A DNA stretch of 8,151 bases from IMG/VR virus record IMGVR_UViG_2671180254_000013. The stretch is one strand, 5' to 3'. The translations under genes were made by a program, and so were the position numbers. The notes under the pieces were generated by a model. That model did not search any database, had not been told where the DNA came from, and was given only the letters and a program-made list of their open reading frames with translations. The stretch comes from a virus (Duplodnaviria; Heunggongvirae; Uroviricota; Caudoviricetes). Positions 7,337 through 8,151 of this stretch are shown here, in pieces; within the stretch, counting starts at the first letter, position 1; each line of letters opens with the position of its first letter.

Positions 7337-8081
7337 ATGATTTACACTAATCAGCTTCGTTACAGTGGCAAAGATGGCATCTATTTCCACTTAAGAGACA
7401 ATGTAGATGCCTTCTTAACCTTATCAGCAACTGAAAACATGGAATTTGATAGCCCTATGCAGGTGACTACACAGAACATGCAATTATGAAGGAAGCTTAT
7501 TATTAACTCGTCAGGGTCAATTAGTAGAAAACTTCATTGACACTCTGGAAAACTGGCGTGACCAGAAGCAGATTATTTCTGTTATCTGTAAAGATGGAAT
7601 TAAAATTGACGATTCCATTATTACCAACTTTAAAGCCTCTAAAGATGTTACTATCTCTAACGGTCTTCGTATCCAGCTAACTTTTCAGGAAATTAACTTT
7701 AAAGCAATCGTAGGTCAAACTGATATTTCAGCAGCCACTGGCAAAACGGCTACCACAAATGACGGTGGTGTGACCAGTAAGAAGAATGCAGGTAACGTGA
7801 CCACTGAACGCAATAACGCGCCTATGCTATCGTGCAAAGAGTTAATGAATATTAGCGATGTATCCGGTTACGCTCCAGCTATCAGAAATGATATTCTCGA
7901 TGCTCAGATTAAATGTAATAAGGCTTGGAAGCTGGACTATTCAGACTTAACAGAAGCTGAAAAAACCAACGTCACCAATGCTAATAGTAACGCTGGTCGA
8001 GTAGCTTCAAAGCTTAAAAAGTACTCAGTGTGCAAAATGGCATCTGAATCGATCGCAGTTTGGCATTCGAATCGATCATGA
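7337..8081 (+). CDS. Hypothetical (probably virion/tail-associated) protein apparently split by a +1 frameshift: frame A 7337-7489 (50 aa, ATG start with AAAGGAG SD) and frame B open 7467-8081 with no conventional start codon until the GTG at 7770
   Basis: Frame A: ATG 7337, SD AAAGGAG 7-8 nt upstream, stop TGA 7487-7489. Frame B is open from 7467 and contains no ATG/GTG/TTG before 7770, so it is most simply the continuation of frame A after a +1 shift in the 23-nt overlap (..CAA UUA U GAA GGA..). Position directly downstream of the tape measure gene suggests a tail component; its 3' end overlaps the iteron array. Confidence 0.45.
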
Positions 8082-8151
8082 TTTGGCATCCATCTCCGAT
8101 CACAGTTTGGCATCACAATCGATCACGATTTGGCATACTTCCGATCATTGA
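8047..8151 (+). repeat. Iteron-like array: at least 4 full copies plus one truncated copy of a ~20-bp unit (consensus approximately AATCGATCACAGTTTGGCAT) at 23-24-bp spacing, each with a GATC; continues beyond the window
   Basis: Units at 8047-8066 (AATCGATCGCAGTTTGGCAT), 8070-8089 (AATCGATCATGATTTGGCAT), 8098-8113 (GATCACAGTTTGGCAT), 8117-8136 (AATCGATCACGATTTGGCAT) and 8143-8151 (GATCATTGA, cut by the window edge). GGCAT recurs at 8062, 8085, 8109, 8132; a degenerate copy (AATGGCAT) sits at ~8035-8042. Confidence 0.7.

Follow-up and report, generated by a model that had tools for sequence, protein, structure and literature searches.

The last 121 nucleotides of an 8,151-nt Caudoviricetes sequence (IMG/VR record IMGVR_UViG_2671180254_000013, of which the whole stretch analysed is hereafter called the window) carry a tandem array of GATC-containing direct repeats that reaches the right edge, which raises the question of what kind of protein-binding site the array represents. 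An earlier note had proposed an iteron-type replication origin, a partition centromere or the arm-type sites of a recombinase. Helically phased direct repeats, predicted to be sites of a protein acting in a DNA transaction, were indeed found, although they belonged to none of these three systems. The array is the end of a known insertion sequence (IS) in a well-studied family, and not a replication origin. Specifically, window positions 8031–8151 are almost certainly the left terminal inverted repeat region of the IS21-family element ISSso4 or of a near-identical isoform, with the units L1–L5 as its terminal repeats, predicted to be recognised by IstA.

The array consisted of five direct repeats of the form TGGCAT-N5-7-CGATC(A/G)-N5 (Table 1), with spacings of 23, 23, 24 and 23 bp from L1 to L5. 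Each unit combined two conserved boxes, TGGCAT and CGATCA, that lay 11–12 bp apart from centre to centre, approximately one helical turn. Tandem Repeats Finder called the array at 8038–8136 with a period of 23, 4.3 copies and a score of 98, and additionally called a double-unit period of 47. A pattern search with TGGCAT-N5-7-CGATC returned five matches, all in the array and none elsewhere in the window; 0.01 matches were expected by chance, and 0 of 200 shuffled sequences reached five. The self-identity of the array was 0.53 at a lag of 23 and 0.57 at a lag of 47, compared with maxima of 0.48 in 5,000 shuffles and 0.50 in 358 other segments of 121 nt. The earlier description of at least five phased direct repeats of 23–24 bp was therefore borne out, far beyond chance, by all three approaches. 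Two details differed: CGATC was present in all five units rather than in four, and the conserved block began with the TG at 8031 rather than at 8030, as determined from aligned copies with different flanks.

Table 1. Features of the ISSso4 insertion and of the interrupted gene. Positions are those of the window unless stated otherwise; right-end units are read inward as the reverse complement.
Feature	Position	Strand	Description
Dit-like 'phage baseplate protein' gene remnant	7337..8030	+	By alignment to the intact MSB1_9I gene
Chimeric ORF	7770..8081	+	Baseplate remnant, 16 IS-encoded codons and stop
Left copy of target-site duplication	8024..8030	.	7 bp, CTCAGTG; same heptamer after the right IS end
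ISSso4 left end	8031..8151	+	First 121 bp of the 2,639-bp element; opens with terminal TG
IS tip	IS positions 1–7	+	TGCAAAA
L1	8038..8060	+	TGGCAT CTGAAT CGATCG CAGTT; box A at IS position 8; terminal unit, predicted IstA-binding
L2	8061..8083	+	TGGCAT TCGAAT CGATCA TGATT; box A at IS position 31
L3	8084..8107	+	TGGCAT CCATCTC CGATCA CAGTT (24 bp); box A at IS position 54
L4	8108..8130	+	TGGCAT CACAAT CGATCA CGATT; box A at IS position 78
L5	8131..8151	+	TGGCAT ACTTC CGATCA TTGA(T), last base beyond the window edge; box A at IS position 101
R1	right end	inverted	TGCGTAT tip, then TCCGCT CTATT CGATCA CGGAT
R2	right end	inverted	TGGCAT CGAAGTT CGATCA GCGAT
R3	right end	inverted	TCGCAT CCATT CGATCA ACCGG

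Copies of the array were found in unrelated surroundings. The left end of an ISSso4 copy in pINV of Shigella sonnei was identical to window 8031–8151 at 121 of 121 positions and had a different flank, and the same 121/121 identity was observed in contig L009. Copies of the array in Escherichia coli with different flanks were approximately 99% identical to that of the window. The sequence shared between differently flanked copies opened at the TG corresponding to window 8031. The base composition also changed at this boundary, from 37% GC in the phage-like island that makes up the remainder of the window to 52% GC in the IS. A blastn search of positions 8020–8151 against phage records matched relics annotated as 'transposase, partial' in Stx2 prophages. 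A diverged or truncated relic resembling the ISSso4 left end was seen in a Stx2a prophage (L002 900–1110).

The window contains only 121 bp of ISSso4, and the remainder of the element (istA, istB and the right end) was read in contigs that match the window exactly. The exact 45-nt junction had no match in genome contigs representing one genome per species or in viral contigs. The extension was found through an exact look-up of the 726-aa tape-measure protein of the window, which is encoded exactly in thousands of assemblies. The DNA of those assemblies matched the window, also across the junction and at 8137 (A). Beyond the window edge, the array continued with the last base of L5 and one degenerate sixth unit (TGGAATTCGCCAGTCAC), so that the earlier expectation of an array running past the edge was correct in direction, while hardly any further extent was left to find. 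The bases directly following window position 8151 are expected to read T-TGGAATTCGCCAGTCACTCCGGGAATTAAC..., and the right junction, approximately 2.5 kb further on, is expected as ...GAATAGAGCGGAATACGCA, then CTCAGTG, then AACCCTAACAAAAAATACTAA.

It had been suggested that a gene for a Rep protein, ParB or an integrase might follow the array; the genes found there were istA (511 aa), starting 231 nt from the IS tip in contigs of the same locus, followed by istB (251 aa). IstA scored 287 bits on the model NF033546 transpos_IS21 (cutoff 160), and IstB 252 bits on NF038214 (cutoff 200), with an E value of 5e-60 on PF01695. Residues 73–373 of IstA matched the solved IS5376 transposase with an E value of 9e-14, and IstA of this locus showed 100% identity to the ISSso4-family transposase annotated in pINV. 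This identity and the heavy load of IS elements (IS1, IS3 family, IS4) in the chromosomes that match the window suggest that the source may be of the S. sonnei type. A simple scan of the IS left end returned no sigma-70-like promoter and no terminator. The full element spanned 2,639 bp (contig L007 13809–16447) and closed with ...GAATAGAGCGGAATACGCA, ending in the terminal CA; the sequence shared by copies with different flanks ended ...GAATACGCA, giving the termini TG...CA. Multiple direct repeats of approximately 23 bp were present at both ends, the left end having five units and the right end three, in inverted orientation. The CGATC boxes lay 20, 43, 67, 90 and 112 nt from the left tip and 19, 43 and 65 nt from the right tip, and L1 and R1 shared their register from the tips within 1 nt. 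ISSso4, as named by NCBI PGAP in S. sonnei and E. coli, has the same left end, IstA, istA–istB layout, TG...CA termini and length of 2,639 bp. There was no substantive difference from this element; the window records one insertion of it, at the 3' end of a Dit-like gene next to wrbA. All testable defining features of the IS21 family were observed.

An empty site was identifiable for this insertion. In E. coli MSB1_9I, the island reads ...AAAAAGTACTCAGTGAATCC... at this position, with CTCAGTG present once and the array absent. In the occupied site, a second copy of CTCAGTG followed the right end of the element (L009 15670–15676, also in L007). Both a short target duplication and its empty counterpart were therefore present at this locus. 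The length of the duplication appeared to be 5–7 bp in the ISSso4 copies seen; duplications in the IS21 family are generally given as 4–8 bp (ISfinder). A possible target preference was noted: in four of five independent insertions, the left end was immediately preceded by (A)CTCAG or ATCAG (window 8022–8030; L004 ~3500; L017 ~965; L003 ~3500); the sequences at the insertion flanks were TACTCAGTG, CACTCAGAA, AACTCAGGC and GCATCAGGG.

The MSB1_9I sequence (...AAAAAGTACTCAGTGAATCCGAACAAGAGATACTAA) contains the intact gene for a 261-aa Dit-like 'phage baseplate protein', which matched PF21821 Dit_like and phrog_3721. In the window, this gene carried a 74-bp deletion near 7493 that causes a frameshift and inactivates it, and the IS sits six codons before its stop, so that these six codons and the stop were lost. 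The array seems to begin inside an open reading frame only because the insertion deprived the baseplate gene of its last six codons. The overlap with the 3' end of the preceding ORF that the earlier note described is real, but it is secondary, as the tail of this ORF is IS sequence; the parallel drawn to lambda ori within gene O is an artefact of an insertion cutting a gene. In this lineage, the copy of the island is in decay (L007 12920–13700 and 17728–18955), as indicated by the frameshifted baseplate gene and the IS insertions. In some sister genomes, an additional IS1 was found at approximately window position 7925. The large serine recombinase gene of the island was split by an IS3-family element.

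The overlap of 51 nt between the ORF at 7770–8081 and the array is also the observation that would speak for a coding repeat, in which the product of this ORF would have repeated amino acids at its C-terminus. We give this reading practically no chance. The intact homologue ends in ...KKYSVNPNKRY* and has no repeat, only two units lie inside the ORF before its stop at 8079–8081, and the period of 23–24 bp is not a multiple of three. Elsewhere, the same DNA adjoins unrelated genes.

The element was mobile and widespread. The array was present in 2,473–2,622 of 5,426 complete E. coli genomes, or about half, at as many as 35 sites in one genome, both chromosomal and plasmid-borne; the higher count, 2,622 genomes, came from the blastn search with positions 8020–8151. 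Array matches were found under unrelated genes, including tssJ, fimE, a haemagglutinin gene, ardA and a colicin gene. In every copy inspected, the array lay approximately 230 bp upstream of istA–istB genes annotated as IS21 family or ISSso4 family. E. coli O177:H21 carried an independent ISSso4 insertion in the same island, approximately 270 bp further to the right in its serine recombinase gene. Multi-copy spread independent of context, as expected of a mobile element, was thus observed.

These results bear directly on the proposal that the array is an iteron-type origin of the phage-like island or of a plasmid, bound by a Rep protein. The array does resemble iteron origins such as lambda ori in O and P1 oriR in its tandem, phased direct repeats of approximately 20 bp, here five repeats with a spacing of about two helical turns. 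Its GATC cluster recalls P1 oriR and oriC, and the island encodes a putative O-like/DnaD-like replication initiator (window 733–1686). Unlike iteron origins, however, the array moves between loci, is mirrored in inverted form 2.5 kb away, where the IS ends, and shows no linkage to a Rep gene: the adjoining genes are istA and istB, and the O-like gene of the island lies 6.3 kb away. The same island exists without the array in E. coli MSB1_9I, the approximately 99% identical array in unrelated loci is next to istAB in every copy inspected, and the target duplication bounds the element. The AT-rich unwinding element that was to be looked for beside the array was not found there: the GC content was 44% in the array and 46% in the following 110 bp, remaining at 44–46% through the istA leader, and the 40-nt segment with the lowest GC content (32.5%) was the ribosome-binding and start region of istA. 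Moreover, the O-like gene has four 22-bp repeats and an AT-rich stretch of its own (L007 6077–6220), a more plausible origin. Taken together, the empty site, the mobility with istAB, the inverted right-end units and the target duplication make an origin at this position extremely improbable.

A partition centromere (parS/parC-like) or the arm-type sites of a neighbouring recombinase would likewise take the form of tandem phased repeats, and relatives of the island do have a large serine recombinase gene immediately to the right. However, the gene calls for the island and the IS included no parA/parB (or parM/parR). The recombinases of the island are of the serine type (PF00239 Resolvase, PF07508 Recombinase), and a tyrosine integrase, which would have an arm-binding domain and lie next to an att core, was not found. 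Serine recombinases are not known to use arm-type sites. In addition, relatives of the island with intact recombinases lacked the array, and the array moved together with istAB. We therefore consider both of these assignments to be very remote. The empty site, the mobility, the inverted units, the TG...CA termini and the target duplication contradict all the rejected candidates, namely the iteron origin, the centromere, the arm sites and the coding repeat.

The surrounding DNA had features of its own. The window comes from a phage-like island of approximately 11–13 kb, located between ymdF and wrbA. Apart from the match of the array to transposase relics, megablast and blastn searches of the window against phage records returned only partial similarity to Felixounavirus. 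The genes of the island (window 1–8030; L005/L007) included a small resolvase, a Dam-like methyltransferase, the O-like replication gene and several small ORFs. A 236-aa protein of the island annotated as 'transposase' had no family match. The only structural genes were those for the 726-aa tape-measure protein and the Dit-like baseplate protein, and the large serine recombinase adjoined wrbA. Nucleotide identity with virulent Felixounavirus phages was 88–93% in the baseplate gene and in the 3' part of the tape-measure gene. A role as a satellite-like or interference element of FelixO1-like phages is conceivable for the island; a literature search returned no description of a Felixounavirus satellite of this kind.

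The O-like gene (317 aa, window 733–1686) matched PHROG 'replication initiation protein / O-like' families. It contained four 22-bp direct repeats (TTAC[T/C]CA[G/C]T[C/G]AGTCAA...) followed by an AT-rich stretch. These repeats correspond to window 1076–1220 and are mostly hidden under a run of N at 1101–1353. Through this run (253 bases) and a second one at 1642–1904 (263 bases), the O-like gene is partly hidden, as is the beginning of the ORF that follows; the masked letters could be read in L007 at 6102–6354 and 6643–6905. From their layout, which resembles that of lambda ori, the repeats in the O-like gene appear to be a stronger candidate iteron origin than the array reported earlier. The lambda-like iterons in this gene and the Felixounavirus-like content of the island are more unusual than the array itself.

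The organisation of the ISSso4 ends was compared with that of studied IS21-family elements. The terminal inverted repeats of IS21 consist of multiple direct repeats (L1/L2 and R1/R2) with a 23-bp spacing (PMC10122671). In IS5376, as described from biochemistry and cryo-EM, each repeat has two conserved regions separated by approximately 10 variable bp, which are read through the major groove by HTH-1 and HTH-2 of one IstA monomer (PMC10122671; PMC11208146). Integration of IS5376 requires two complete repeats, an IstA tetramer synapses the two ends in a negatively supercoiled geometry, and the target is bent by IstB decamers (PMC10122671; PMC11208146). Since the units of ISSso4 agree with this scheme in their period, in their layout of two boxes and in their register, we infer that they are IstA-binding repeats. 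ISSso4 shares with IS21 and IS5376 the 23-bp direct repeats, the two boxes approximately one turn apart, the terminal CA, the AAA+ helper IstB and a short target duplication. The elements differ in the number of units, which is two per end in IS5376, whereas the left end of ISSso4 has five good units plus a degenerate one and the right end has three; with five to six units, the left end thus exceeds the 'usually at least two' given for the prototypes. They also differ in the boxes (TGGCAT and CGATCA in ISSso4, GC-rich CS1/CS2 in IS5376) and in the target duplication (7 bp here and 5–7 bp in the copies seen, compared with 5 bp in the prototypes). The 511-aa IstA of ISSso4 and the IS5376 protein are related at the E value given above.

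Several transposase-binding repeats, unequal in number between the two ends, are also found in phage Mu (L1–L3 and R1–R3) and in Tn7 (TnsB sites). Mu, Tn7 and ISSso4 are further alike in pairing a DDE transposase with an AAA+ partner, an analogy drawn previously (PMC10122671). In contrast to Mu and Tn7, ISSso4 belongs to another transposase family, has other recognition sequences, lacks an enhancer and target-selector proteins, and is much smaller.

Comparable end arrays were present in relatives with 44–47% IstA identity. ISEc12 had at least four units with the boxes GAGATC and AATAAC, ISBmu3 of Burkholderia glumae five units with TGATCA and CCGAAAC, an element of Gemmobacter five units and an element of Pseudomonas luteola two to three units, the boxes of the latter two being devoid of GATC. 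A 74%-identical relic in E. coli EC0026B (L018 3001–3250) had six clean units. Relative to ISSso4, the boxes were conserved at 90% of positions and the spacers at 56% (Fisher p 1e-4), and box A was changed from TGGCAT to TCGCAT in five of five aligned units. The contrast between boxes and spacers and the concerted change of box A form the pattern that would be expected of sites co-evolving with one DNA-binding protein. Judged from these alignments, the relic implies a sister IS with a putatively changed IstA specificity.

By analogy with IS5376, transposition of ISSso4 would begin with the binding of one IstA monomer to each unit, with its two N-terminal helix-turn-helix domains reading one box each. 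An IstA tetramer would then synapse L1/L2 with R1/R2 and cleave at the terminal CA. The AAA+ helper IstB would bend the target, and the element would be inserted by a staggered cut. In the case of the window, ISSso4 landed six codons before the stop of the Dit-like gene, with duplication of CTCAGTG. The extra units L3–L5 and the degenerate L6 might serve the loading of IstA, the assembly of the transpososome or the autoregulation of istA; these roles are guesses.

The GATC sequence within the units raised the additional question of whether the ISSso4 end depends on Dam methylation. CGATC was present in eight of eight units (five left, three right) and lay within the most conserved box. In a variant of the preferred reading, the binding of IstA or the use of the ends would depend on Dam methylation or on SeqA, coupling transposition to replication in a manner comparable to IS10 and IS50. 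IS10, IS50, IS903 and IS3 are Dam-regulated, SeqA binds clustered hemimethylated GATC sites, and N6-methyladenine is exposed in the major groove, the side of the DNA that helix-turn-helix domains read. In favour of this variant, GATC falls within the putative transposase-binding site in all eight units, the enterobacterial relative ISEc12 has GAGATC in each unit, and the hosts are Dam+. Against it, TGATCA occurs in each of the five units of ISBmu3, and Burkholderia is not known to methylate GATC. Furthermore, the relatives in P. luteola and Gemmobacter have boxes without GATC, and the IS as a whole is not enriched in GATC (13 sites compared with 16 expected). A literature search returned no paper linking the IS21 family to Dam. 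We consider Dam or SeqA dependence unlikely. Because the same box is found in ISBmu3 and other relatives lack GATC, the CGATC box seems to be primarily an IstA recognition element, and the GATC it contains primarily a part of the recognition motif.

The distribution of GATC in the remainder of the window was conspicuous. Positions 1–8030 contained no GATC site, where 22–28 were expected, and all five sites of the window were located in the IS end. The whole island was GATC-free in L007 (2347–13828) and L006 (1–9622), and still encodes a Dam-type methyltransferase (PF05869). In a 14.8-kb Felixounavirus segment (L001, phage garuso, 1–14771), the number of GATC sites was likewise 0, compared with 45 expected. 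The insertion of ISSso4 places 13 GATC sites into an otherwise GATC-free island. This complete avoidance of GATC by the island and by Felixounavirus phages is more unusual than the array itself.

For the locus, the array marks the boundary of an IS and not an origin, and the significance of the finding lies mainly in correct annotation: the insertion of ISSso4 accounts both for the truncated appearance of the preceding gene and for the repeats at the end of the window. For the IS21 family, ISSso4 provides a clean natural end with five to six two-box units, and it raises the question of the role of the repeats beyond L1/L2. If Dam or SeqA dependence were true, methylation- or SeqA-gated loading of the transposase would constitute a replication-coupled control not described for the IS21 family.
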